Shown in pieces: positions 3,637 to 24,000 of a DNA stretch of 24,000 nucleotides (its first letter is position 1; each line of letters starts with the position of its first letter). The notes beneath the pieces are model-generated. The model searched no databases. It was not told the origin of the DNA and saw only the letters and a program-made list of their open reading frames with translations. A program made the position numbers and the translations under genes. Location of the stretch: positions 395 through 24,394 of the forward strand of contig JAUNSA010000015.1 of the NCBI GenBank assembly GCA_030539405.1, given 5' to 3'. Source of the stretch: Propionibacteriaceae bacterium (GTDB taxonomy: Bacteria; Actinomycetota; Actinomycetes; Propionibacteriales; Propionibacteriaceae).

Positions 3637-5355
3637 CTACCCCGTGGTGTACGGCAGGACGATCCGGCTGGGGTGCTCGGCGTCCCGGTAGATCGTGTGG
3701 GTGACGGGGCGACCGACGGGCAGGTGGAAGGAGTCCGGCGGCAGCAGTGCGTTGTGCTCGTCGGCCAGGGGCTCGTTGTTGGAGAGCTCCAGGACGAGCT
3801 TGTGTCCGGGCAGGAACGCGTTCGCGAACGGGTAGAGCCGGATGACGTACTCGTTCACCTCCCCCGGCGTCACCGGCACCGCACGGGTGTGCGGGTGCAC
3901 GGGGCTGCCCTCGGTCGTCCGTTCGAGGTCGAGCTCGCGGTGCGACGCCTTCAGGTAGCCGGTGGTGATGAGCTGCCGCTTGCCGTTGGGGGCGGCGTCC
4001 CACAGCCGGAGGATGAAGTTGGTGTCCTCGGCGTCGATCGCGGCGAAGATGTGCGCCGCACCGGTGCCCATCATCTCGACCTTCTCGGTGAACGGCGCGG
4101 TCTCCCAGCTCAGGATCTCGACCTTGTCGGTCACCGTCAGCGGCGCCTGGAAGAAGCCGTCCGGGGCGGCGTACTCGGGCCCCATCAGCTCGGGCTCGGC
4201 CGACAGCTTGCGACGCGGGCGCAGGTACAGCGGACGGTACTCGGTCGGCTTCGGCGGCCACTCCTCGGCGGTCACATACTCGCGCGAGCCCTCGACGAAC
4301 ACGGTCACCGCCGACTCCTCGTCGACGCCGTTGTCGATGCCCTTGAGATACTTGTCGTACCAGCGGAACATCTTGTCGTGCTCCTCGATGAACGGGCGGC
4401 TCTGCATCGGCGGGTACGGCCCGAGGTCGAGCTTCTTCGGGCCGGTCACGGCGTTGAAGACCTCGATGGTGCCGTCCAGGGTCCAGCCGCGGCCGTGGTC
4501 GAGCTGCAGCCACACCGGGATGTCGATGTTGCCGGCAAGCTCGTTGGGGTTCCGCTCGGTGTACCAGGGGCCGTCGAGCTCGTTGGTGATGATGTCGAAC
4601 CACGGCTCGTGGTTCTTCGGGTAGTGCAGGACGTGCACCATGTTCGGCCACGCGGCGATGTCGGGGTCGGCCAGCCGGGCCTCGACCCGAGCGCGCACCT
4701 CGTCGGCCGACAGCTCGGAGAGCATCCGCGACTTCACGCCGTCGGTGAACGCCCAGCCCGAGTCGCCGCCTCGTCCCTCGCGCGCGGCGCGCGGCATGAG
4801 CCACATGATGCCGCCGTGGTAGGTGGTCTCGTAGAAGTCGTAGTGCCCGCCCGAGACGAAGATCGCCTTGAGCGACGGCGGGCGCTCGGCCGCCGCGATC
4901 ACCTGCATCGAGCCGAAGTAGCTGATGCCGATCATGCCGACGTTGCCGTCGCACCACGGCTGCGCGGCGACCCACTCGATGAAGTCGTAGGCGTCCTCGC
5001 CCAGCGACACGCCCCCGGCGTTGTAGTTGCCGATGTGCTCACCGTCGGAGTGACCGGTGCCGCGCAGGTCGCCGATGACGTGCACGTAGTCCTCGGCGAC
5101 GACGCGGGCGATGTCGCCGGCCTCGATGCAGCCGTCCCACATCGGGGAGGGACGCCGCTGCGGCGGCATGGTCAGCGCCAGCGCCTGGAGCTCCTTGCCG
5201 TAGGGGCTGAGCGCCACCAACGCCGGGCGCGGCTTCTCGTCAGTGCCCTCGTAGGCGTCGGCGACCAGCTCCACGCCGTCGCGCATCGGCACGCGCAGGT
5301 CCTTACGGATACGGATCGTCTGCCCGCCCGCGTCCCAGGTCCGGATGTCAGCCAT
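3637..5355 (-). CDS. CocE/NonD-family (S15, X-Pro dipeptidyl-peptidase-like) serine hydrolase
   Basis: 572 aa. Contains DLRGTGHSDG and the nucleophile elbow GISYFGS (GxSYxG), and has the long C-terminal domain typical of the family. Confidence 0.88.
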   Translation of the reverse strand: MADIRTWDAGGQTIRIRKDLRVPMRDGVELVADAYEGTDEKPRPALVALSPYGKELQALALTMPPQRRPSPMWDGCIEAGDIARVVAEDYVHVIGDLRGTGHSDGEHIGNYNAGGVSLGEDAYDFIEWVAAQPWCDGNVGMIGISYFGSMQVIAAAERPPSLKAIFVSGGHYDFYETTYHGGIMWLMPRAAREGRGGDSGWAFTDGVKSRMLSELSADEVRARVEARLADPDIAAWPNMVHVLHYPKNHEPWFDIITNELDGPWYTERNPNELAGNIDIPVWLQLDHGRGWTLDGTIEVFNAVTGPKKLDLGPYPPMQSRPFIEEHDKMFRWYDKYLKGIDNGVDEESAVTVFVEGSREYVTAEEWPPKPTEYRPLYLRPRRKLSAEPELMGPEYAAPDGFFQAPLTVTDKVEILSWETAPFTEKVEMMGTGAAHIFAAIDAEDTNFILRLWDAAPNGKRQLITTGYLKASHRELDLERTTEGSPVHPHTRAVPVTPGEVNEYVIRLYPFANAFLPGHKLVLELSNNEPLADEHNALLPPDSFHLPVGRPVTHTIYRDAEHPSRIVLPYTTG

Positions 5356-13581: not shown

Positions 13582-14742
13582 CTACTGCGGCAGGCGCATC
13601 AGCATGATGACGTGCTTGTAGTCGGTCGACGGCTCACCGTCGAACTCGACCAGCGGCGTCAGCAGGCAGGGCTTGCCGGGCGCGGTGAAGGCGAAGTTCA
13701 CGTACGGGGTGTCCAGCGCGTTCAGGGCGTCCAGCAGGTAGTGCGGGTTGAAGCCGGCCGCGGTCATGGCCAGGCCGTTGCCCGTCTCGTCGACCACGGT
13801 CGCCTCGACGGCCTCGACCGCCTGGGCCTGGTCGCCGGTGGCGGCCTCGAGCGTGATGTGGTCCTCGGCGATGACCATGCGCAGGCTCGTGTTGCGCTCG
13901 GCGACCAGCGCGACGCGCTTGACCGCGGCCACGATCTCGGCCGTGTTCGCGCGCACGGTCAGGCTCGGCTGGACGTTCATCAGGTGGCGCACCTTGGGGA
14001 ACTCGCCGTCCAGCAGGCGCGTGGTGATCTGGCGGACGCCGTTGGTCCCCTCCCCCTCGAAGCCGATGAGGCCGTCGCCGCCCTCGGACGACGACAGCGA
14101 CAGCGACACCTTCTCGCCGGCGGTCATGGACTTCGACGACTCGGCGAGCACCTTCGCCGGCACCAGCGCGGCCGCCTCGGTGTTGCGCGACGTGGGCGAC
14201 CAAGGCAGCTCCTTGAGCGCCATGCGGTAGCGGTCGGTGGCCAGCAGCGACACCGTGTCGCCCTCGATCTCGACGCGGACGCCGGTGAACACCGGCAGCA
14301 GCTCGTCACGCCCGGCGGCGACGACCACCTGCGAGACGGCCTGGGCGAACGTCTCGGGGGTCAGCGTGCCGGTGGAGACGGGCATCTCCGGCAGGTCGGG
14401 GTACTCGGCCAGCGGCAGGAGCTGGAGGGTGAAGCGCGCGGAGCCGCAGGTGATCTCCATGCGCGAGGAGTCGGCGTCCAGGTCGACCGGCTTGGCCGGC
14501 AGGCTGCGGGCGATGTCGGCCAGCAGGCGTCCGGACACCAAAGCCACGCCCTCGTCCTGGACGTCGGCGGCCACCGTCACCTTGGCCGAGGTCTCGTAGT
14601 CGAAGCTGGACAACACGACCTGGTCACCGGACGCCTCGAGGCGAAGCCCGGCCAGGATCGGCACGCTCGGCCGGTTCGGCAGGCTGCGCGCCACCCACTG
14701 GACGGCGTCGGCCAACACGTCACGCTCGACACGAATCTTCAC
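13582..14742 (-). CDS. dnaN: DNA polymerase III beta sliding clamp
   Basis: VKIRVERDVLADAVQWVARSLPNRPSVPILAGLRLEA.. is a typical DnaN N-terminus. Start trimmed to GTG 14742, with GGGAG 5 nt upstream. The track start at 14781 adds 13 atypical residues. Confidence 0.92.
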   Translation of the reverse strand: MKIRVERDVLADAVQWVARSLPNRPSVPILAGLRLEASGDQVVLSSFDYETSAKVTVAADVQDEGVALVSGRLLADIARSLPAKPVDLDADSSRMEITCGSARFTLQLLPLAEYPDLPEMPVSTGTLTPETFAQAVSQVVVAAGRDELLPVFTGVRVEIEGDTVSLLATDRYRMALKELPWSPTSRNTEAAALVPAKVLAESSKSMTAGEKVSLSLSSSEGGDGLIGFEGEGTNGVRQITTRLLDGEFPKVRHLMNVQPSLTVRANTAEIVAAVKRVALVAERNTSLRMVIAEDHITLEAATGDQAQAVEAVEATVVDETGNGLAMTAAGFNPHYLLDALNALDTPYVNFAFTAPGKPCLLTPLVEFDGEPSTDYKHVIMLMRLPQ

Positions 14743-15123
14743 TGATGCTCCCAGGTCGATGAACGGCGCCCGGAGGTGCACGGGCGGCTGCGTGGCCGAT
14801 CCTATCGTGCGATGTGGGCGTCGTCGGCACCGACGGCGTTACCCACAATCGCGCAGGGTCCTGAGGTTGAAGAGAAGGAGATGTCTAACTTCTCTTCTTC
14901 GTCTTCACACCTGTGGATCTCGTGGACAGTCGGCGTCTGCCCAAGCCGCATCGGTGTTTCGGCCCAGCACATCCTGTGGGAAAACCGGAACTACACGGGG
15001 AGGATTTGTGGAGCCGTTTCCGGGTCGATCCGGCTGTCCACAGCACGGCCTGGTTGTCCACAGGGTTGTTGGGGAGAAATCCCCACGTTCGCGACTCGTC
15101 GGATGCCGTCGCGGCACGCCGCA
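14743..15123. other. probable oriC: DnaA-box cluster plus AT-rich element in the dnaA-dnaN spacer
   Basis: Matches to the 9-mer TTGTCCACA: 15054-15062 (9/9), 15034-15042 (8/9), TTACCCACA at 14839-14847, and reverse-orientation boxes at 14912-14920, 14921-14929, 14975-14983 and 15007-15015 (6-7/9). An AT-rich stretch at 14862-14910 contains a perfect 9-bp inverted repeat, GAAGAGAAG (14869-14877) and CTTCTCTTC (14889-14897). Confidence 0.8.
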
Positions 15124-16515
15124 CTAGCGGGCCGAGGCCGCCTGCTTGATCCGGTTGGTGAGCTCGGTGACCTGGTTGTAGATCGTCCGACGCTCCGCCA
15201 TGAGCTGGCGGATCTTCTTGTTGGCGTGCATCACCGTCGTGTGGTCGCGACCACCGAAGAGGCGTCCGATGGCCGGCAGCGAGAAGTCGGTGAGCTCGCG
15301 GCACAGGTACATGGCGATCTGGCGGGCGGTGACCAGCACGTGCGTGCGCGCGGGGCCGCACAGGTCGTCGACGGTGATGTTGAAGTAGTTCGCGGTCTGG
15401 CTCATGATCAGCGGCGGCGTGATCTGGGCCTCCACCCCTTCGGGGATGAGGTCCTTGAGCACCTCCTCGGCCAGGCGCATGTCGACGGGCTGGTGGTTGA
15501 GCGAGGCGAACGCCGTCACCCGGATCAACGCCCCCTCCAGCTCGCGGATGTTCGTGGCGATCTTGCCGGCGATGAACTCCAGCACCTCGGGGGTGGCGCT
15601 CAACTGCTCGGCGGTGGCCTTCTTCCGCAGGATCGCGATGCGCGTCTCCAGGTCGGGCGGCTGGATGTCGGTGAGCAGGCCCCACTCGAACCGGCTCCGC
15701 AGGCGGGGCTCCAGGGCCTCGAGCGCCTTGGGCGGGCGGTCCGAGGTCATCACGATCTGCTTCTGCGCGTTGTGCAGCGTGTTGAACGTGTGGAAGAACT
15801 CCTCCTGGGTCTGGATCTTGCTCTCCAGGAACTGGATGTCGTCGATCAACAGCACGTCGATGTCGCGGTAGGTCTTGCGGAACTCGACCGTCCGGTTCTC
15901 CGAGATCGCGTTGATGAAGTCGTTGGTGAGCTCCTCGGTCGAGACGTACTTCACCCGCACCTGCGGCAGGTACTGGCGCACATAGTGACCGATGCCGTGC
16001 AGCAGGTGCGTCTTGCCCAGCCCCGAGGGGCCGTAGATCATCAGCGGGTTGTACGCCTTGCCGGGGGCCTCGGCGACCGCGACGGCCGCGGCGTGGGCGA
16101 ACCGGTTGGACGAGCCGATGACGAAGTTCTCGAAGATGTACTTGGGGTTCAGCCGATCGCCCGCGGTCGCCGGCGTCGAGCTGGACGCCGTGGCGTTCAG
16201 CGTGGGTGCGCTCAGCGGGAGTTCGGGCGACGCGGTGGCCTGGGCGTCCTCCAGGTCGGTCTCCAGCGAGGGGTCGACCGAGACGGCCAGATGAATCGGA
16301 CGCCCGAAGTGGCCGGCCAGCGTCGATTCGATCCAGTCGCGGTGGCGCACGGCGACGCGTTCGCGGGAGAAGTCGTTCGGCACGGCGATGACGAGGGTCG
16401 ACTCGTGCAGGGCCAGGGGCTTGGCCGCCTTGACCCACGGCTTGATGGGGGTGCTGGCGAGCTCACACACCTGGTCCCATGCTCCGGTGAGGGCACCGAC
16501 GCCGTCCTGGGTCAT
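15124..16515 (-). CDS. dnaA: chromosomal replication initiator protein DnaA
   Basis: Contains the AAA+ motif GPSGLGKTHLLH, LLIDDIQFL, and the C-terminal DNA-binding domain (RQIAMYLCRELTDFSLPAIGRLFGGRDHTTVMHA). Start is ATG 16515, preceded by GGAGGAG 7 nt upstream. The longer track ORF would translate through the DnaA boxes. Confidence 0.94.
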   Translation of the reverse strand: MTQDGVGALTGAWDQVCELASTPIKPWVKAAKPLALHESTLVIAVPNDFSRERVAVRHRDWIESTLAGHFGRPIHLAVSVDPSLETDLEDAQATASPELPLSAPTLNATASSSTPATAGDRLNPKYIFENFVIGSSNRFAHAAAVAVAEAPGKAYNPLMIYGPSGLGKTHLLHGIGHYVRQYLPQVRVKYVSTEELTNDFINAISENRTVEFRKTYRDIDVLLIDDIQFLESKIQTQEEFFHTFNTLHNAQKQIVMTSDRPPKALEALEPRLRSRFEWGLLTDIQPPDLETRIAILRKKATAEQLSATPEVLEFIAGKIATNIRELEGALIRVTAFASLNHQPVDMRLAEEVLKDLIPEGVEAQITPPLIMSQTANYFNITVDDLCGPARTHVLVTARQIAMYLCRELTDFSLPAIGRLFGGRDHTTVMHANKKIRQLMAERRTIYNQVTELTNRIKQAASAR

Positions 16516-16541
16516 GGATTCACTCCTCCGATGATGCTGAG

Positions 16542-16574
16542 CCGTCCACACTACTGTCCACAATCTGTGGAAAA
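16542..16574. promoter_or_regulatory. three DnaA boxes upstream of dnaA (autoregulatory region)
   Basis: CCGTCCACA at 16542-16550, CTGTCCACA at 16554-16562, and TGTGGAAAA (reverse complement TTTTCCACA) at 16566-16574. These lie 27-60 nt upstream of the dnaA ATG. Weaker boxes occur at 16751-16760 and 16782-16790. Confidence 0.7.
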
Positions 16575-16838
16575 CCAGTGCCCGACCGCCGACCGAGTGG
16601 GGTCGCTTCGGTGTCGTGGGACGCTACGGTAGTCGCTAGCGGAGAAGCCCCGCAAATACCCCGTCCGTGATCTCGCGCCTCGTCGGCGTGTCGGGTCGAC
16701 AAGACGGACGCCGAGGGACCAGTTTGCCCGGACGCCCCTGGACCGCGTATCGTTGGACAGTCGCCTTCTCGGGCGACGCCTGTGTCCACGTGGGCGCAGT
16801 CGATCCGCACCCGTGGTCAAAAATGTAGGGAGATTGGC

Positions 16839-17332: not shown

Positions 17333-17568
17333 GGTGGGTCCTCGTCGGCCTGCTCAAGGCCTACCGCGCGGTCATCAGCCCGCTGTACGGCGACGTCTGC
17401 AAGTTTCACCCCACGTGTTCTGCCTACGCCCTGGACGCGGTGCGCGCCCACGGCACGGTGCGGGGCACGTGGCTCACCCTGAGGCGCCTCGTGCGCTGCC
17501 ACCCGTGGTCACTCGGCGGTTACGACCCCGTCCCGGCCACTGACGCACAGAAGGTGCATCGTGCTTGA
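17329..17568 (+). CDS. yidD: membrane protein insertion efficiency factor YidD
   Basis: LLKAYRAVISPLYGDVCKFHPTCSAYALDAVRAHG..RCHPWSLGGYDPVP is the YidD signature. ATGA overlap with rnpA. Confidence 0.9.
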   Translation: MRWVLVGLLKAYRAVISPLYGDVCKFHPTCSAYALDAVRAHGTVRGTWLTLRRLVRCHPWSLGGYDPVPATDAQKVHRA

Positions 17569-18652
17569 ATTCCTGGACACGCTCATGCAGCCCATCTACT
17601 GGGTCATGTCGGGCATCCTCGTCGGCGCCCACCAGTTGTGGAGCTTCATCCTGGACCCGAACTCCGGGTGGACGTGGGTCCTGGCGATCGTCTCGCTGAC
17701 CGTGGTGGTCCGGACGCTGATGATCCCGCTGTTCGTGCGGCAGATCAACAGCTCGCGCGCCATGCAGCTGATGGCCCCCAAGCAGCGGGCCCTCCAGCAG
17801 AAGTACGGCTCTGACAAGGAGCGTTACGGCCAAGAGGTCATGAAGCTGTACAAGGAGGAGGGCGTCAACCCGGCCGCCTCCTGCCTGCCGCTGTTGCTGC
17901 AGATGCCCGTCTTTCTGGGCCTGTTCTATGTGCTGAACGGTGCTGCCACCGGCAACCCGAAGGGTCACTGGTTCGTCACGCGTCCGGACCTGGTGGATTC
18001 CCTGCGCGAGTCCACGATCTTCGGCGCCAAGATCTCGGCGACGTTGAGCCAGAACGGCTTCGTCGTCGGCCCGACGATGTTCGTCGCGGTCTTCCTCATC
18101 ATCACCATGACCGCGTCGCTGTTCTTCATGCAGCTCATGCTGATGCGCAAGAACATGCCGCCGGAGGCGCTGGAGGGCCCGTTCGCCCAGCAGCAGAAGA
18201 TGATGCTGTACCTCTTCCCGGCCATTTACCTGTTCACCGGCGTGGCCTTCCCCATCGGCGTGATGATCTACTGGCTGGCCTCCAACCTGTGGACGATCGG
18301 CCAGCAGTTCATCCTGATCCGCAACAACCCGACCCCGAACACCCCGGCGTTCATCGACTGGGAGGAGCGCATGCGCGCCAAGGGTCGGGACCCCGAGGAG
18401 ATCCTGCGCAAGCGCAACGCGAAGCTGCAGCGCAAGCGTTCCGGCGGCACCGCCACGGCTGACCCGACGAAGGTCGCCCGCCAGGGCACCGCCAGCACCA
18501 CGACGTCCGCGTCCACGACGCCGGACGCCGGCGACACCACCGAGAGCACGGCATCCACCCAGCGCGTGAAGCGGCAGCAGCCCAGCCGCCAGACCCGCGC
18601 TCGACGCAAGCAATCCCGCCCGCACCAGTCGGGCGGCGGCAACAAGGAGTGA
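17561..18652 (+). CDS. yidC: membrane protein insertase YidC
   Basis: 363 aa. Contains the 60-kDa insertase core (IPLFVRQINSSRAMQLMAPKQRALQQKYG.., PIGVMIYWLASNLWTIGQQ) and a basic, Thr-rich C-terminal tail. Confidence 0.92.
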   Translation: MLEFLDTLMQPIYWVMSGILVGAHQLWSFILDPNSGWTWVLAIVSLTVVVRTLMIPLFVRQINSSRAMQLMAPKQRALQQKYGSDKERYGQEVMKLYKEEGVNPAASCLPLLLQMPVFLGLFYVLNGAATGNPKGHWFVTRPDLVDSLRESTIFGAKISATLSQNGFVVGPTMFVAVFLIITMTASLFFMQLMLMRKNMPPEALEGPFAQQQKMMLYLFPAIYLFTGVAFPIGVMIYWLASNLWTIGQQFILIRNNPTPNTPAFIDWEERMRAKGRDPEEILRKRNAKLQRKRSGGTATADPTKVARQGTASTTTSASTTPDAGDTTESTASTQRVKRQQPSRQTRARRKQSRPHQSGGGNKE

Positions 18653-18657
18653 CACAG

Positions 18658-19284
18658 ATGAGCCAGGACGAGCAGGTCATCACCGAGGTCGAGGCGGACG
18701 CCCCGGTCGCGGAGCAGGCAGACACGGACGCCGCGGACGCCGCGGAGACCGAAGCCCCAGAGGCGGACGCCGACGGCGGCGGGCAGACGGACGCCCCGGC
18801 TGACGACGCACCGCGCGTCAGCAAGCGCGAGGAGGCCCTGAACAACGAGGGCGAGATCGCCGCGGACTACCTCGAGGAACTCCTCGACATCGCCGACCTC
18901 GATGGCGACATCGACACCTTCAACGAGGGTGGCCGTGCGCACGTGTCGATCCTCACCGACGCCGAGGTGCTGGTCGGCAAGGATGGCCAGGTCCTGGACG
19001 CCCTCCAGGAGCTCGCCCGCCTGGCGGTCATGACCGAGACCGGGCATCGCAGCCGCCTCATGCTCGACGTGGCCGGCTTCCGGGACAAGCAGCGCGCCTC
19101 GCTGCAGGACCTCGCCGCCGACGCCATCGCCGAGGTCAAGGAGTCCGGGGAGTCGGTGCGCCTCTCCCCCATGAACCCCTACCAGCGCAAGATCGTGCAC
19201 GACGCCGTCGCCGCTGCCGGGCTCGTCAGCGAGTCCGAGGGCGAGGAGCCGCGCCGACGCGTCGTGGTCCTGCCCCAGGGCTGA
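18658..19284 (+). CDS. jag: Jag/KhpB-type KH + R3H RNA-binding protein
   Basis: Acidic N-terminus followed by the C-terminal R3H region LSPMNPYQRKIVHDAVAAAGLVSESEGEEPRRRVVV. ATG 18658 lies 8 nt after AAGGAG. The track start, GTG 18649, is the alternative. Confidence 0.88.
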   Translation: MSQDEQVITEVEADAPVAEQADTDAADAAETEAPEADADGGGQTDAPADDAPRVSKREEALNNEGEIAADYLEELLDIADLDGDIDTFNEGGRAHVSILTDAEVLVGKDGQVLDALQELARLAVMTETGHRSRLMLDVAGFRDKQRASLQDLAADAIAEVKESGESVRLSPMNPYQRKIVHDAVAAAGLVSESEGEEPRRRVVVLPQG

Positions 19285-19286
19285 CC

Positions 19287-19943
19287 ATGGACGCCCCCGC
19301 TGCGGCCACCGCGGTCTTCGGGGACGAGCTGCCCCGCGCCGTGGCGTTCGCCGAGTTCCTGGCGACCCACGGCGTGGAGCGCGGCCTGTTGGGGCCGCGC
19401 GAGGTCGATCGGATCTGGGAGCGGCACGTCCTCAACAGCGTGGCCGTGGGGCATGCCATGCCCGAGGGCGCCACGGTGGTCGATGTCGGCAGTGGGGCCG
19501 GCCTGCCCGGCATGCCTGTGGCCCTGGCGCGCCCCGACCTGCAGATCACCTTGTTGGAGCCCCTGCTGCGACGCTCGCAGTTCCTGGAGGAAGCCGTCGA
19601 GGTCTTGGACCTAGGTGAGCGTGTCCGCGTGGTGCGCGGCCGGGCCGTTCCCCCCGGCGACAACGACCCCCTGGGGCACCACGAGCGCTACGACGTCGTC
19701 ACCAGCCGCGCCGTGGCCGCACTCCCCCGCCTGCTGGGCTGGTGTGTGCCGCTGATGAACGCTGACGGCCGGATCGTGGCGCTGAAGGGCGCGACGGCGA
19801 CGGACGAGATCAACCAGGCAACCCAGGACCTACGCCGTCACCGCCTCGACGCCGAAGCCCGCAGCGTGGTGACCCACGAGGGCGCCGAACCCACCTGGCT
19901 AGTCGTCTGCACCGGCTCCCACGCCCACCCCCGCACCGCGTAA
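19287..19943 (+). CDS. rsmG: 16S rRNA (guanine527-N7)-methyltransferase RsmG
   Basis: Contains RIWERHVLNS and the SAM-binding motif VVDVGSGAGLPGMPVALA. The gene order jag-rsmG-parA-parB is conserved. Confidence 0.92.
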   Translation: MDAPAAATAVFGDELPRAVAFAEFLATHGVERGLLGPREVDRIWERHVLNSVAVGHAMPEGATVVDVGSGAGLPGMPVALARPDLQITLLEPLLRRSQFLEEAVEVLDLGERVRVVRGRAVPPGDNDPLGHHERYDVVTSRAVAALPRLLGWCVPLMNADGRIVALKGATATDEINQATQDLRRHRLDAEARSVVTHEGAEPTWLVVCTGSHAHPRTA

Positions 19944-20044
19944 CCGCCGAGGACCGGCGCCTGCACCGCCGAGGACCGGCGGTGACGCTGCCGAAGACCG
20001 GCGGTGACGCCTGCCGAGGACCGGGAGAGGCAGCCGCAGGACGG
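19944..20044 (+). repeat. array of 4 (possibly 5) phased direct repeats, core CCGAGGACCGGCG
   Basis: Cores sit at 19947-19959, 19969-19981, 19991-20003 (CCGAAGACCGGCG) and 20014-20026 (CCGAGGACCGGGA), with spacings of 22, 22 and 23 bp. A degenerate copy occurs at about 20034. The array starts immediately after the rsmG stop. Confidence 0.85.
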
Positions 20045-20196
20045 ATATCTCCCTGTGCCTTAACAAATAAACACACAAGAAGATAAGTCGATATAAAGCT
20101 ATACAGAGAACATTGGCCCTACAAGCGTGGTTGGCGGCGTCCGCATGTAGGAGCGGGTAGATTGTCCCGGTCCGTACGTTTCTGCAGGAGGTTCAT

Positions 20197-21114
20197 GTGG
20201 TGGCAACTTCCCCAGCCACGCCACGCCGAGCGGCAACCTTGGAGCCGGAGATCGCCGAGGGCGTGCCTGAAGCGCCTGACGACCTGGCGCCGGGTGTTTC
20301 ACGTGAAACACCGACGCTCCCCCAGCCTGGATCGCCCCGCATTATGGTGGTGGCCAACCAGAAGGGCGGTGTGGGAAAGACCACGACCGCTGTGAACGTG
20401 GCGGCGGGGCTCGCCGCCGGAGGGTTGAAGGTGATGGTGATCGACATTGATCCCCAGGGGAACGCCTCGACCGCCCTCAGCGTGGAGCACGGAGAAGGGA
20501 CGCCGGGGACCTACGAGGTTCTGGTGGATCAAGAACCCATCATTGACTCTCTGCAACGCTGCCCAGACCTGCCCGGGCTCTGGGTGCTGCCCGCCACGAT
20601 TGACTTGGCCGGTGCAGAGATCGGGCTGGTTGCCACCGTTTCACGTGAAACACGCCTCAAGCAGGCGCTGGACGCCTTCTTCGACCACTACTACGTCGAC
20701 TACGTCATCATCGACTGCCCGCCATCCTTGGGGCTGCTCACCCTCAACGCACTCGTGGCCGCTCACGAGATCATGATCCCGATCCAGTGCGAGTACTACG
20801 CCTTGGAGGGGGTAACCCAGCTCCTGAAGACAATCAACTTGGTCAAGGGACGCCTCAACGACAGCCTCGTCCTGTCCACCGTGCTGTTGACCATGTACGA
20901 CGGTCGGACGAACCTGGCCTCACAGGTGGCGGACGAAGTCCGGCGCCACTTCGAGCGCGAAACGCTCACCGCGGTGATCCCCCGCTCGGTGCGCGTCGCG
21001 GAGGCACCGTCCTACGGACAGACGGTCATCACCTACCAACTCAACTCGGTGGGCGCACAGGCCTACCTGGCGGCCGCCAGCGAGATCGCGGAACGCGGCG
21101 CAACCGGCTTCTGA
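20197..21114 (+). CDS. parA: chromosome partitioning ATPase ParA/Soj
   Basis: Deviant Walker A NQKGGVGKTTTAVNVAAGLA, plus IIDCPPSLGLLTLNAL. GTG start lies 5 nt after AGGAGG. Has an N-terminal extension of ~45 aa. Confidence 0.92.
   Translation: MVATSPATPRRAATLEPEIAEGVPEAPDDLAPGVSRETPTLPQPGSPRIMVVANQKGGVGKTTTAVNVAAGLAAGGLKVMVIDIDPQGNASTALSVEHGEGTPGTYEVLVDQEPIIDSLQRCPDLPGLWVLPATIDLAGAEIGLVATVSRETRLKQALDAFFDHYYVDYVIIDCPPSLGLLTLNALVAAHEIMIPIQCEYYALEGVTQLLKTINLVKGRLNDSLVLSTVLLTMYDGRTNLASQVADEVRRHFERETLTAVIPRSVRVAEAPSYGQTVITYQLNSVGAQAYLAAASEIAERGATGF
20295..20310. other. parS centromere site (perfect 16-mer palindrome)
   Basis: TGTTTCACGTGAAACA matches the universal chromosomal parS consensus at 16/16. 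It lies inside the parA N-terminal extension and encodes VSRET. Confidence 0.9.
20637..20652. other. parS centromere site (15/16)
   Basis: CGTTTCACGTGAAACA, inside the parA ATPase core, encodes VSRET within the conserved ..SRExRLK.. segment. Confidence 0.85.
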
Positions 21115-21133
21115 CTAGGAGGAACGTACTCTC

Positions 21134-22075
21134 ATGGCAACACCACGTCAGCGCAGCGGACTCGGCCGTGGTCTGGGTGACTTGATTCGACCCACCTCAG
21201 CGGAACCCGCACCAGAGTCGAACCAGCCACGTCAGCAGGAAGAGCCCGAATCCGGCAGCCTCGTACCCGCACCGGCGGGCGCGGCCTTCGTTGAGCTGCC
21301 CGTTGACGAGATCGCGGCCAACCCCCGACAGCCGCGCCACGTCTTCGATGAGGACGACTTAAGTGAGCTGGTCGAGTCGATCAGGGAGGTCGGACTCCTG
21401 CAGCCGGTGGTCGTTCGGCGCGTCGAGGATGGTTATGAGCTGGTCATGGGCGAGCGACGTCTCCGTGCCACACGGAAGGCGGGACTCACGCACATCCCGG
21501 CCATCGTTCGCGAGACCGCCGACCACGACCTTCTGCGTGATGCACTACTGGAGAACCTCCATCGGGTGCAGCTCAACCCCTTGGAAGAGGCTGCTGCTTA
21601 CCAGCAGATGCTCGATGACTTCGGGTGTACGCAGGAGGAACTCGCCACGCGGATCAAGCGGTCACGCCCCCAGATCTCGAACACGATCCGCCTGCTGCGT
21701 CTGCCAGCCCCCGTGCAGCGTCGCGTGGCAGCCGGCGTCCTGTCGGCTGGGCACGCCCGGGCCCTCCTGATGGTGCAGGACCCCGTTGAGCAGGAGCGCT
21801 TGGCCCAGCGGATCGTGGCCGAAGGATTGAGCGTTCGGTCGGTCGAGGAGCTCGTCGCAGTGGGGGAGCGAGCTCCTCGCACGCGTCGCACGATCGCTCG
21901 GACGCCCTCGCCCAGGGCTGCGCACCTGGCCGAGGTCTTCTCCGACAGCTTGGACACCAGGGTGAACGTCCAGATCGGCAAGTCCAAGGGCAAGATCACC
22001 ATCGAGTTCGCCGGTGAGGACGACTTGGACCGCATCCTGACGGTGCTGCGGGACGGAGTCTCGACTCAGGGATAA
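21134..22075 (+). CDS. parB: chromosome partitioning protein ParB/Spo0J
   Basis: Contains N-terminal [10 protein letters not shown], the ParB box [25 protein letters not shown], and HTH region [34 protein letters not shown]. Confidence 0.93.
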
Positions 22076-22100
22076 GTAGACAAAACTGCTTTTGGCCATG

Positions 22101-22205
22101 GAACCGGTCCTCGACGTTCAAAGCACCGGTCTTCGGCGTTTCTGCCGCCGGTCCTCGGCGACTTAGGCGCCGGTCGTCGGTGACCGTATCGCCGGTCCTC
22201 GATGG
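22101..22205 (-). repeat. array of 5 phased direct repeats, core CGCCGGTCCTCGG (reverse complement of the upstream array)
   Basis: CCGGTC(C/T/G)TCG cores start at 22104, 22126, 22148, 22170 and 22192, an exact 22-bp period. The spacers between them are not conserved. Confidence 0.88.
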
Positions 22206-22259
22206 GTGGACGATTAGTCGACAAACGGCTAAAGCCCTAAACGGCTAATCGGCTCCGCC

Positions 22260-22625
22260 TCAGGCGCGGACAGCATCCAACCGGGTCCGGACGTCCTTGG
22301 TGGCGTAGTGCTCGGCGACGAACGACAGGAACGGGATGGTGCCGGCCAGCGCGATCAGGATCAGGCGCATCCAGGGCCAGCGCACGCGGCGTCCGAGATC
22401 GTAGGCGGTGATCAACAGCACCATGTACAGCCAACCGTGCGGCACACCGGTGGCCACGACGACGGCATCGTTGTCGCCGAAGTACTTCAGGGGCATCCCG
22501 ACCACCACGAGAACGACCAGCAGGACGCCGACCAACCAGGCCATCACGCGGTAGCGCAGCAGGGCACCTCGGATGCCGGCAACCTCCTCGGCCTCGATGG
22601 GGCTGTCGTCGAGCGACATGCTCAT
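22260..22625 (-). CDS. DUF3817-type small integral membrane protein
   Basis: 121 aa with 3-4 TM segments. LRYRVMAWLVGVLL..VPHGWLYMVLLITAYDL resembles the DUF3817 family. ATGA overlap with the upstream gene. Confidence 0.75.
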   Translation of the reverse strand: MSMSLDDSPIEAEEVAGIRGALLRYRVMAWLVGVLLVVLVVVGMPLKYFGDNDAVVVATGVPHGWLYMVLLITAYDLGRRVRWPWMRLILIALAGTIPFLSFVAEHYATKDVRTRLDAVRA

Positions 22626-23368
22626 GCGGTCACGTCCTTCCTGTGGTTCTCGAGCAGAGCGGCCTCCTTGGCCTTGCGGTCACGGACGCCGAGGCCATGG
22701 GCCAGCTTGATGGCCATGCCCATCCCGAACACGGCGAACACCCACCACTGCAGGGCGTACCCGCTGTTCTGTGCGGATCCCTCACCGGTCGGCAGCGCCA
22801 CGGACGCGGCGTCCAGGCCGTGGGCTGCGGCGTCCGCCTCGCCCAAGGTCACGAAGCCGGGCACGAGCTGTTCGGGCCACTCCTGGGCCAGCGCGGGCAT
22901 CCGCACCGACGGAAGCTGGCCGGCCGGGACATCGACGTGGACGCCCTGGTCGTTGAGCACGTTGCCCTCCCCGGGCAGGAAGATCCCGGTCTCGGAGCGC
23001 ACACCGGTCGGGGGAGCGGCAATCGCCGCAGGGTCAGCGGTGAGGCCGCGCACGATGGGCAGGGTGCGGCCGTCGGCGATCTCGATCGCCCCCAGCACGC
23101 GGTAGGCCCCGTCCGTCGGGACCAGGATCTGGTGGTCGGGCAGGTAGGTCCCCTCGACGACGACCTGCTTGCCGTACAGCTCCCCGAGCTCGTCGTCCGA
23201 GGCGAGGTGATCGTCCAGCACCTCGGCGGGCTGGGCGGCGCGCTGCTCGACCGAACGGGCCCCCTCGTCGACGAAGACCTGCATCTGCCACAGGCCGAGG
23301 AACACCATCCCGAGCGCGATGGCAGCGGCGACCGTGATGATCAGGACCTGCTTGAGGCGCGTGCTCAT
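22622..23368 (-). CDS. SURF1-family protein
   Basis: Has an N-terminal TM segment with LGLWQ and a C-terminal YALQWWVFAVFG TM segment, the SURF1/Shy1 architecture. Start trimmed to ATG 23368 (MSTRLKQVL), 2 nt after the ddl stop. The track's longer N-terminus is Arg/Pro-rich and overlaps ddl. Confidence 0.8.
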   Translation of the reverse strand: MSTRLKQVLIITVAAAIALGMVFLGLWQMQVFVDEGARSVEQRAAQPAEVLDDHLASDDELGELYGKQVVVEGTYLPDHQILVPTDGAYRVLGAIEIADGRTLPIVRGLTADPAAIAAPPTGVRSETGIFLPGEGNVLNDQGVHVDVPAGQLPSVRMPALAQEWPEQLVPGFVTLGEADAAAHGLDAASVALPTGEGSAQNSGYALQWWVFAVFGMGMAIKLAHGLGVRDRKAKEAALLENHRKDVTA

Positions 23369-23370
23369 GA

Positions 23371-24000
23371 TCAGGCGACACCCTCGATCCGGGTGCGCGC
23401 CGCAGCGACGAGGGCGGCACACACGTCCGCGAACGAACCGTCGGACGCCTCGATGGCCAACGGCAGCAGGGACGTCTCGGTCATGCCGGGGGCCACGTTC
23501 ACCTCGAGGAAGACCGGGACGCCGTCGCGGACGATCAGGTCGGTGCGGGACAGGTCCCGCAACCCGAGGACGCGGTGGGCGGTCAGCGCCATCTCGGCGC
23601 ACGCCTCGGCCACCTCGGCGTCCAGGTCGGCGGGCGCGAGGAAGCGGGTGGCGCCGGCGGTGTAGCGCGCCGTGTAGTCGTACAGGCCCGACCGTGGCTG
23701 GATCTCCACCCCCGGCAGCGCCCGCGGCCCCTCCCCGGTGTCGATCACGGAGACGGCCACCTCGACGCCCTCGATGAACTCCTCCACGATGGCGATCTCG
23801 CCGTAGCTGAAGGCGGCGACCACGGCGGCCGGGAGCTCGGCGGCGGTGCTCACCTTGGTGCAGCCCAGCGCCGAACCGCTGCGGGCGGGCTTGACCATCA
23901 TCGGGAAGCCGATCCGCTCGGCGAGGGCCCCGATGAGGTTGGCCGCACCCAGCTCGCGGAACATGTCGTGGGGCAGCGCCGAGGCCCGCGGCGTCCGAAT
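23371..24000 (-). CDS. ddl: D-alanine--D-alanine ligase, C-terminal ATP-grasp part (5' part lies beyond the window end)
   Basis: GFPMMVKPARSGSALGCTKV..EIAIVEEFIEGVEVAVSV..FLEVNVAPGMTETSLLPLA are Ddl ATP-grasp motifs. The reading frame stays open to position 24000. Confidence 0.85.
   Translation of the reverse strand: MRTPRASALPHDMFRELGAANLIGALAERIGFPMMVKPARSGSALGCTKVSTAAELPAAVVAAFSYGEIAIVEEFIEGVEVAVSVIDTGEGPRALPGVEIQPRSGLYDYTARYTAGATRFLAPADLDAEVAEACAEMALTAHRVLGLRDLSRTDLIVRDGVPVFLEVNVAPGMTETSLLPLAIEASDGSFADVCAALVAAARTRIEGVA

Follow-up and report, generated by a model that had tools for sequence, protein, structure and literature searches.

The parA and parB genes of this Propionibacteriaceae bacterium, together with both of their parS sites, are enclosed by two arrays of a 22-bp repeat in mutually inverted orientation, one of four units directly behind rsmG and the other of five units in the gap between parB and a convergent DUF3817 gene. 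In the window (the whole 24-kb stretch of DNA that was analysed), the arrays are a real feature of a single lineage, with a function that, judged from sequence, is unproven. They are probably either hairpin-type boundary elements or sites for a putative binding protein; phased repeat arrays and hairpin arrays are both known kinds of element, and the present case is a variant in a single lineage. The preferred interpretation, with a probability of roughly one in three, is that the arrays are REP-like tandem stem-loop boundary elements at transcript ends, recognized through their loop and closing base pairs, and this is ranked slightly above protein binding to iteron-like duplex DNA.

Position and phasing of the repeat arrays

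The locus is an origin-proximal chromosomal partition locus comprised of the following features.

13582-14781, minus strand: dnaN (Pfam)
15124-16563, minus strand: dnaA (Pfam)
17561-18652, plus strand: yidC (Pfam)
18649-19284, plus strand: jag/R3H (Pfam)
19287-19943, plus strand: rsmG, GidB methyltransferase (PF02527, E 1e-44)
19942-20030, minus strand: upstream array, four 22/23-bp units (pattern search and Tandem Repeats Finder)
19948-19957, 19970-19979, 19992-20001 and 20015-20024, minus strand: cores CCGGTCNTCG of the upstream array, at spacings of 22, 22 and 23 bp
20158-20163, plus strand: TAGATT, candidate -10-like hexamer read from the sequence, ~34 nt upstream of the parA start
20197-21114, plus strand: parA, Walker ATPase (AAA_31, CbiA, ParA, MipZ), with both parS sites inside
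20295-20310: parS 1, TGTTTCACGTGAAACA
20637-20652: parS 2, CGTTTCACGTGAAACA, 342 bp from parS 1
21134-22075, plus strand: parB, canonical chromosomal type (ParB_N, HTH_ParB and ParB_C domains)
22098-22207, plus strand: downstream array, five 22-bp units (pattern search and Tandem Repeats Finder)
22104-22113, 22126-22135, 22148-22157, 22170-22179 and 22192-22201, plus strand: cores CCGGTCNTCG of the downstream array, all at spacings of 22 bp
22260-22625, minus strand: DUF3817 membrane protein gene (PF12823), convergent with parB
Downstream of DUF3817, minus strand: SURF1 and ddl (Pfam)

ParB (313 aa) has a 100% identical counterpart in an NCBI MAG assigned to Propionibacteriaceae, and its next best match is at 82%. 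Canonical DnaA boxes (TTGTCCACA, CTGTCCACA) cluster at the dnaA-dnaN gap and upstream of dnaA (15034-15062 and 16540-16800), marking oriC; within the window, DnaA boxes were found only around dnaA (15034-16574) and in yidC, with none beside the arrays. The dnaA-rpmH spacer also contains an 18-bp tandem duplication at 16600-16635. A search of the window for the 16-bp parS palindrome TGTTTCACGTGAAACA, allowing up to three mismatches, returned only the sites at 20295 and 20637 and left the array units unmatched. The upstream array is adjoined by an AT-rich stretch (20050-20125, GC 0.45) and lies ~130 nt upstream of the -10-like TAGATT, the conservation of which suggests a separate parA promoter downstream of this array. 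At the other end of the locus, the SURF1 open reading frame as listed (22622-23602, 326 aa) overlaps that of ddl (23371-23964) by ~230 nt and the SURF1 proteins of relatives are 243-254 aa long, so the true SURF1 start is probably internal.

Nine copies of CCGGTCNTCG were found in the window, compared with 1.23 ± 1.17 expected from dinucleotide shuffles, where the highest count among 100 shuffles was five. All nine fall in the two arrays, on opposite strands, and allowing one mismatch added a single match, at 4675, attributable to chance. A weight matrix was derived from the nine units, which score 17.4-22 bits with it, compared with 13.7 for the best other site in the window. No further copies were detected by pattern or matrix scan in the ~20 other intergenic regions of the window. 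Tandem Repeats Finder gave a period of 22 for both arrays, with the upstream array reported at 19943-20024 (3.7 copies, 85% matches). The pattern search thus confirmed the nine copies and the positions and 22-bp spacing of the downstream five, all of which had been noted in a preliminary description of this DNA, as well as the string CGA(G/A/C)GACCGG common to all nine and the inverted bracket that the two phased arrays form around parA, parB and both parS sites.

The upstream array starts 1 nt past the rsmG stop codon. The downstream array fills the 184-bp parB-DUF3817 gap, starting 29 nt past the parB stop and ending ~55 nt before the opposite-strand stop of DUF3817. Each array has the identical orientation relative to the gene that it follows (rsmG on the plus strand, DUF3817 on the minus strand); because the arrays are same-oriented in this sense, each directly 3' of a gene, the bracket can be read as incidental. 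Neither this relationship nor the dyad symmetry of the units formed part of the preliminary description. Just past the downstream array, at 22212-22254, are an 8-bp tandem repeat (AAACGGCT, four copies) and a 9-bp inverted repeat (GATTAGTCG...CGGCTAATC), the latter a predicted hairpin by the DUF3817 stop that may be the terminator of this gene.

Anatomy and predicted folding of the repeat unit

Alignment of the nine units in one orientation revealed nine invariant columns, CCGGTC.TCG. Semi-conserved bases adjoin this core (cg...gcg) and extend it to ~15 bp (a 15-16-mer in the best units), CGCCGGTCCTCGGCG. The units are pairwise 94% identical across the core and 40% identical in the flank columns, where random expectation is 30%. 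The upstream units are 85% alike across the whole unit and their spacers are therefore related; the downstream units have drifted in their outer columns with zero indels, and adjacent downstream spacers are more similar (7/12) than distant ones. The spacers had initially been described as unrelated, a view that the semi-conserved bases, the flank identity and the likeness of the upstream units do not bear out.

Each 22-bp unit is an imperfect palindrome (21 nt + 1 nt) about an invariant asymmetric 5-nt center, GTCNT, which reads ANGAC on the other strand and is enclosed by invariant closing pairs, CCG/CGG, with a variable outer stem. Conservation is highest in this center and the closing pairs, an arrangement that fits a recognized loop and would be odd for a symmetric dimer operator. 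Over eight positions of the dyad, 76.4% of cells pair, compared with 69-72% in column shuffles, and the observed pairing was reached by 6/500 and 24/500 shuffles, a control that overstates the significance of the modest excess because the units are related by descent. When the partner was slid by one or two columns, pairing fell to 25-53%. Changes on both sides are present in four of the eight base pairs, with pair types AU, CG, GC, and GU. The pairing in the units is identical on both strands and, consequently, no strand can be assigned to the hairpins.

Fold prediction gave stems that span 2 to 8 bp. The stem of unit U2 is perfect over 8 bp and carries a 5-nt loop (-16 kcal/mol, z -5.0). Other stems are weak (2-5 bp); D2 is predicted at -5.7 kcal/mol, and D1, D5, and U4 have just two to three contiguous pairs. 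Compared with shuffles, the array regions have somewhat more stable folds (z-scores of -2.2, -2.5, and -3.1). No terminator-like sites (a GC-rich hairpin followed by a U-run) were found in the region 19700-22500, and the arrays had no match in Rfam. A CsrA-type sponge with GGA loops was also considered and rejected, as three of the nine loops have no GGA (AAGAC twice and ACGAC once).

Related loci and matches elsewhere

The comparison set consisted of ten parAB loci from Propioniciclava, Nigerium, and MAGs, with ParB 76-82% identical to that of the window, and included the apparent sister lineage from the ParB tree. The core was absent, phased or unphased, from 10/10 of these loci by pattern search, and their best matrix scores were 6-13 bits. 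Conservation of both arrays in relatives, as proposed earlier for checking, was thus found in 0/10 loci. The same relatives keep parA, parB, parS, the TAGATT -10-like element and an AT-rich motif. The two parS sites are again exactly 342 bp apart in L001, L004, L006, and L008, and in L004 a further parS-like site, the third, lies upstream at about position 2283. The TAGATT element lies ~30-40 nt before parA, as GGGTAGATTG in the window, L005, and L007, and as GATAGATTGAG in L008 and L287. With the arrays absent from ten relatives that retain parAB, two parS sites, TAGATT and the AT-rich motif, the earlier suggestion of a second protein-binding system organizing the partition locus finds no support here and is weakened, although even the nearest relative in public data has a ParB of just 82% identity; the arrays look like a lineage-specific add-on, not a general part of the partition machinery.

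The order rsmG-parA-parB-DUF3817-SURF1-ddl is shared by L002 and L005. In L005, the most syntenic relative, the parB-DUF3817 gap is 75 bp long and holds one 11-bp GC hairpin (z -3.0), and one strong hairpin each also follows parB in L008 (13-bp stem) and L284 (z -4.0). The arrays are therefore a lineage-specific replacement or addition where relatives hold ordinary hairpins. Other, unrelated short tandem repeats are found in the parAB-flanking spacers of several relatives: TGCGGTGC (5.5 copies) and GCGCGGGAG (four copies) in L002 (2702-2745 and 5260-5330), a 14-bp unit (2.8 copies) in L001 (2407-2445 and 2573-2599), a 17-bp unit (3.2 copies) and a 9-bp unit (3.1 copies) in L004 (2011-2070 and 2408-2435), and GTCCACG (four copies) in L284 (1417-1444). 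Judging from these repeats, new repeats seem to arise readily in the spacers flanking parAB. CGGTCC, part of the window core, is also found in the sister-lineage repeat GTCCACG. In the Nigerium locus L002, the two best matrix matches, both CTCGTCCTCGGCG, lie in the parB-DUF3817 spacer at 5095-5110 and 5156-5171, 61 bp apart, and agree with the window core in 11 of 13 positions; this may be a remnant or a chance likeness, GCC-GAG-GAC being a frequent string of codons.

The AT-rich motif, T(T/A)A(A/G)TCGA(C/T)AAA, is found in the window at 20082-20096, 22071-22085, and 22212-22226, and its ideal form is the palindrome TTGTCGACAA or TTATCGATAA. Considered as a candidate DnaA box, it differs at a core position from the canonical boxes of the origin, TGTCCACA. 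The copy at 22071-22085 overlaps the parB stop, and the downstream array sits between two copies of the motif. In every relative examined (L001-L008, L284, and L287), the motif is located upstream of parA and at the parB stop; it is better conserved than the arrays and itself flanks parAB.

Searches outside the locus were made at several levels. A two-copy phased pattern, applied to one genome per species, gave at least 109 matches, mostly single chance ones in unrelated high-GC taxa. A three-copy pattern in JGI metagenomes gave at least 120 loci, and almost all of those listed are whole-unit tandem repeats, mostly 21-bp coding ones, with none adjoining parAB among those listed. As ordinary whole-unit tandem repeats, the matches listed were rejected as a homologous family; L013, L015, and L059 were discarded as analogues because they are perfect 22-bp tandem repeats and L187 because it lies on a satellite-rich contig. 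The only look-alike among the matches listed is L134, on soil metagenome contig Ga0308176_10045785, where three 22-bp units (CCGCCGGTCCTCGGCGG, CACCGGTCCTCGGTGG, and CACCGGTCGTCGGCAG) at 650-740 have the hairpin core CCG-GTCCT-CGG as in the window, with a stem pair that changes in compensatory fashion from G-C to A-T. These units lie between convergent LysR-type and DUF4142 genes, a context unrelated to that of the arrays. BLAST against PLSDB plasmids (best E 0.06) and a scan of IMG/VR viral contigs revealed no similar array. Four of the at least 120 metagenome loci (L119, L167, L176, and L192) carry 21-bp repeats adjoining yidC or jag homologues, which are probably coding, for the YidC C-terminal tail or the Jag N terminus, and unrelated to the arrays, but which mark a place where repeats recur.

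Interpretation and known repeat systems

As REP-like tandem stem-loops, the arrays would occupy the two boundaries of the parAB transcript, one closing the rpmH...rsmG operon at its 3' end and the other between the convergent genes parB and DUF3817. They would act on single-stranded nucleic acid, most likely transcripts, where hairpins of the REP 3'-end or boundary type would serve as a barrier or stabilizer of the transcript end and a specific factor would recognize the conserved loop and closing pairs. One array would have been copied, inverted, to the other boundary, leaving the mirror bracket as a by-product and not a functional unit. On this reading, the arrays would be transcribed and form hairpins in vivo, and they may bind a factor and affect parAB. 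It draws on the palindromy of the units past the core, the U2 stem and the fold z-scores of the arrays, on the conserved asymmetric center and closing pairs, on the contiguous 21+1-nt packing with partly covarying outer stems, on the location of the arrays at gene 3' ends, where relatives have hairpins, and on their identical orientation to the genes that they follow. Against it are the several weak stems, the absence of a U-tract terminator and the absence of dispersed copies in the 24 kb; intrinsic termination by mycobacterial RNA polymerase needs a U-tract, and REP-like families are usually dispersed. Conserved motif families of terminators or extragenic palindromes are known from actinobacteria, an example being TRIT (cited in PMC3384566). 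Such families are also widespread in other bacteria, as REP elements.

The exact 22-bp phasing and diverged outer positions are equally explained by proteins on one face of duplex DNA. In this second reading, a strong rival that is somewhat less probable, the arrays are iteron-like, with a putative sequence-specific protein bound to the 10-15-bp cores, which are phased by two helical turns (22 bp), to either side of parABS, and they could regulate parAB, pair into a loop, or act as a roadblock confining the sliding of ParB from parS. The core is asymmetric, with nine of ten positions invariant in direct repeats at exactly 22 bp, and the downstream array has zero indels even though its outer positions have drifted to 40% identity; in addition, AT-rich DNA (20050-20125) lies beside the upstream array, as would suit this reading. 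The architecture is that of plasmid iterons, as on F, where ori2 and incC lie around repE and the two iteron sets are looped by RepE (PMC13028717), and on F and P1 the spreading of ParB is blocked by RepE-iteron complexes (PMC6238139). The pB171 par2 locus likewise has the order parC1-parA-parB-parC2 (PMC4270457). However, no candidate gene for the binding protein is present at the locus, where ParA is ordinary, ParB is of the HTH type and parS is canonical; the conserved part of each 22-bp unit is 10-15 bp compared with 17-19 bp in the F iterons; and a model of asymmetric double-stranded sites leaves the palindromic flanks unexplained. The absence of the arrays from ten relatives with intact parABS, of DnaA boxes beside them, and of similar arrays on PLSDB plasmids or IMG/VR contigs also speaks against it. 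A more elaborate and doubtful proposal is that of a boundary system for the chromosomal partition locus, in which a protein encoded elsewhere would fill the 4+5 phased mirror sites, pair the arrays and loop out or insulate parA-parB-parS; for example, ParB-CTP clamps could be stopped within 2.2 kb, as RepE-iteron complexes stop SopB on F.

It is unlikely that the arrays are neutral or selfish leftovers, a hairpin-bearing 22-bp unit amplified by slippage, copied once in inverted orientation and without function for the cell. Their presence in a single lineage, the unrelated short tandem repeats of relatives in the same intergenic regions, the 85% likeness of upstream units over the whole unit, and the greater likeness of neighboring downstream spacers, which is consistent with stepwise duplication, would all agree with such an origin. 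Nevertheless, nine invariant columns, contiguous but for one, across nine units, with the 22-bp phase kept while the flanks stand at 40% (random 30%), indicate that uniform neutral decay is insufficient and that constraint on the core or active homogenization is needed. The least probable account, which we consider very unlikely, is that of a long-range RNA bracket, where the arrays would pair in a read-through rsmG-parA-parB transcript as an ~80-bp interrupted duplex that would be processed (RNase III type) or would guard the ends of the parAB message, like the stems flanking rRNA. The predicted inter-array duplex has an energy of -133.7 kcal/mol compared with -77.6 ± 5.9 in shuffles, and a net gain over the separate folds of -47.7 compared with -9.3 ± 3.8, such that the earlier dismissal of RNA pairing on the grounds of non-complementary spacers was too strong. 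Pairing is best in the mirror register (U4-D1, U3-D2, U2-D3, and U1-D4), in which the rare A variant of U3 is opposite the rare T variant of D2, and a 36-nt stretch is 86% complementary between the arrays. Complementarity is, however, automatic from an inverted copy of the same repeat, and the units within one array are alike although RNA pairing needs no such likeness. Moreover, U1 and D4 form a mismatch at their variable position, the single co-variation would arise by chance with a probability of ~0.2-0.25, and the conserved -10-like element of parA downstream of the upstream array would leave the main parAB transcript without its 5' partner.

Were the arrays to bind a protein or to form recognized hairpins, this would be, to our knowledge, the first chromosomal parABS fenced by a dedicated repeat system, with a bearing on the limits of ParB spreading and on parAB expression in the vicinity of the origin. 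As REP-like boundary hairpins, they would show fast birth and copying of such elements at origin-proximal intergenic sites in Propionibacteriaceae. In both cases the arrays belong to a single uncultured lineage, so that the understanding of ParABS in general is unchanged.

The preliminary description had likened the arrays to plasmid repeat clusters, with parC of R1 as the example. The comparison is reasonable, but R1 parC is not the closest case, mini-F ori2/incC and the parC1-parA-parB-parC2 locus of pB171 (PMC4270457) being nearer. Mini-F, checked on NC_002483, resembles the window in having four ori2 (incB) iterons upstream of repE and about five incC iterons, in reverse complement, downstream. 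The ori2 spacings are 21/33/22 and those of the window 22, 22, 22, 22 and 22, 22, 23, both including ~22 bp; like plasmid iterons, the window repeats are direct and asymmetric and recur about every two helical turns (~22 bp). The spacing of incC is irregular, whereas that of the downstream array is exactly 22 bp. The flanked gene in mini-F, repE, encodes the binding protein, in contrast to parA and parB in the window, where no Rep-like domain was found in the open reading frames tested (the neighbors being RsmG, Jag, YidC, DUF3817, and SURF1). Mini-F iterons are conserved over 17-19 bp and not palindromic, unlike the window units of 10-15 bp with dyad symmetry; more generally, iterons are conserved over most of 17-22 bp, whereas the window repeat has nine invariant and about five semi-conserved columns with the rest near random. 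DnaA boxes and an unwinding element adjoin the iterons of mini-F, and the window arrays have no nearby DnaA boxes.

Plasmid centromeres of type Ib/II (pB171 par2, R1 parC, and pCXC100) are similar to the window in that a repeat array adjoins the parA-parB operon. Short direct repeats lie both upstream and downstream of this operon in pB171 (PMC4270457), as in the window, and in the actinobacterial pCXC100 nine direct repeats, which are non-palindromic, precede par (PMC3074162). The centromere repeats of this type are 6-11 bp, contiguous and overlap the par promoter; the window repeats have a period of 22 bp and the upstream array ends ~130 bp before the -10-like element. The plasmid centromeres are bound by small ribbon-helix-helix proteins or ParR, the product of the second par gene, whereas ParB of the window is of the large HTH chromosomal type with parS inside parA.

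REP/BIME elements and conserved terminator motifs such as mycobacterial TRIT are, like the window units, extragenic short imperfect palindromes at gene 3' ends or between convergent genes. REP palindromes, whose sequence is conserved between copies, sometimes form tandem clusters and are associated with a RAYT transposase. Orientation usually alternates within REP clusters, in contrast to the window units, which are all direct within an array, and the REP and TRIT families are defined by many dispersed copies, in contrast to the two adjacent arrays of the 24 kb.

The Tn7 TnsB sites and the ends of Mu comprise several ~22-bp protein-binding sites, direct within an end and inverted between ends, and this direct-within, inverted-between layout of ~22-bp repeats is shared by the window. 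Multi-site transposon ends of the Tn7/Mu kind were nonetheless rejected as an explanation; no terminal inverted repeat or target duplication was read from the sequence at the array edges, no transposase lies inside, and the enclosed parAB is ancestral and syntenic in all relatives. Horizontal transfer of the bracketed parAB was likewise rejected. The GC3 of parA (0.80) and parB (0.77) is lower than that of the flanking genes (0.90-0.97), but the window ParB branches inside the clade and all relatives share the same tendency, so the low GC3 of parAB is a property of the clade and no sign of recent transfer.
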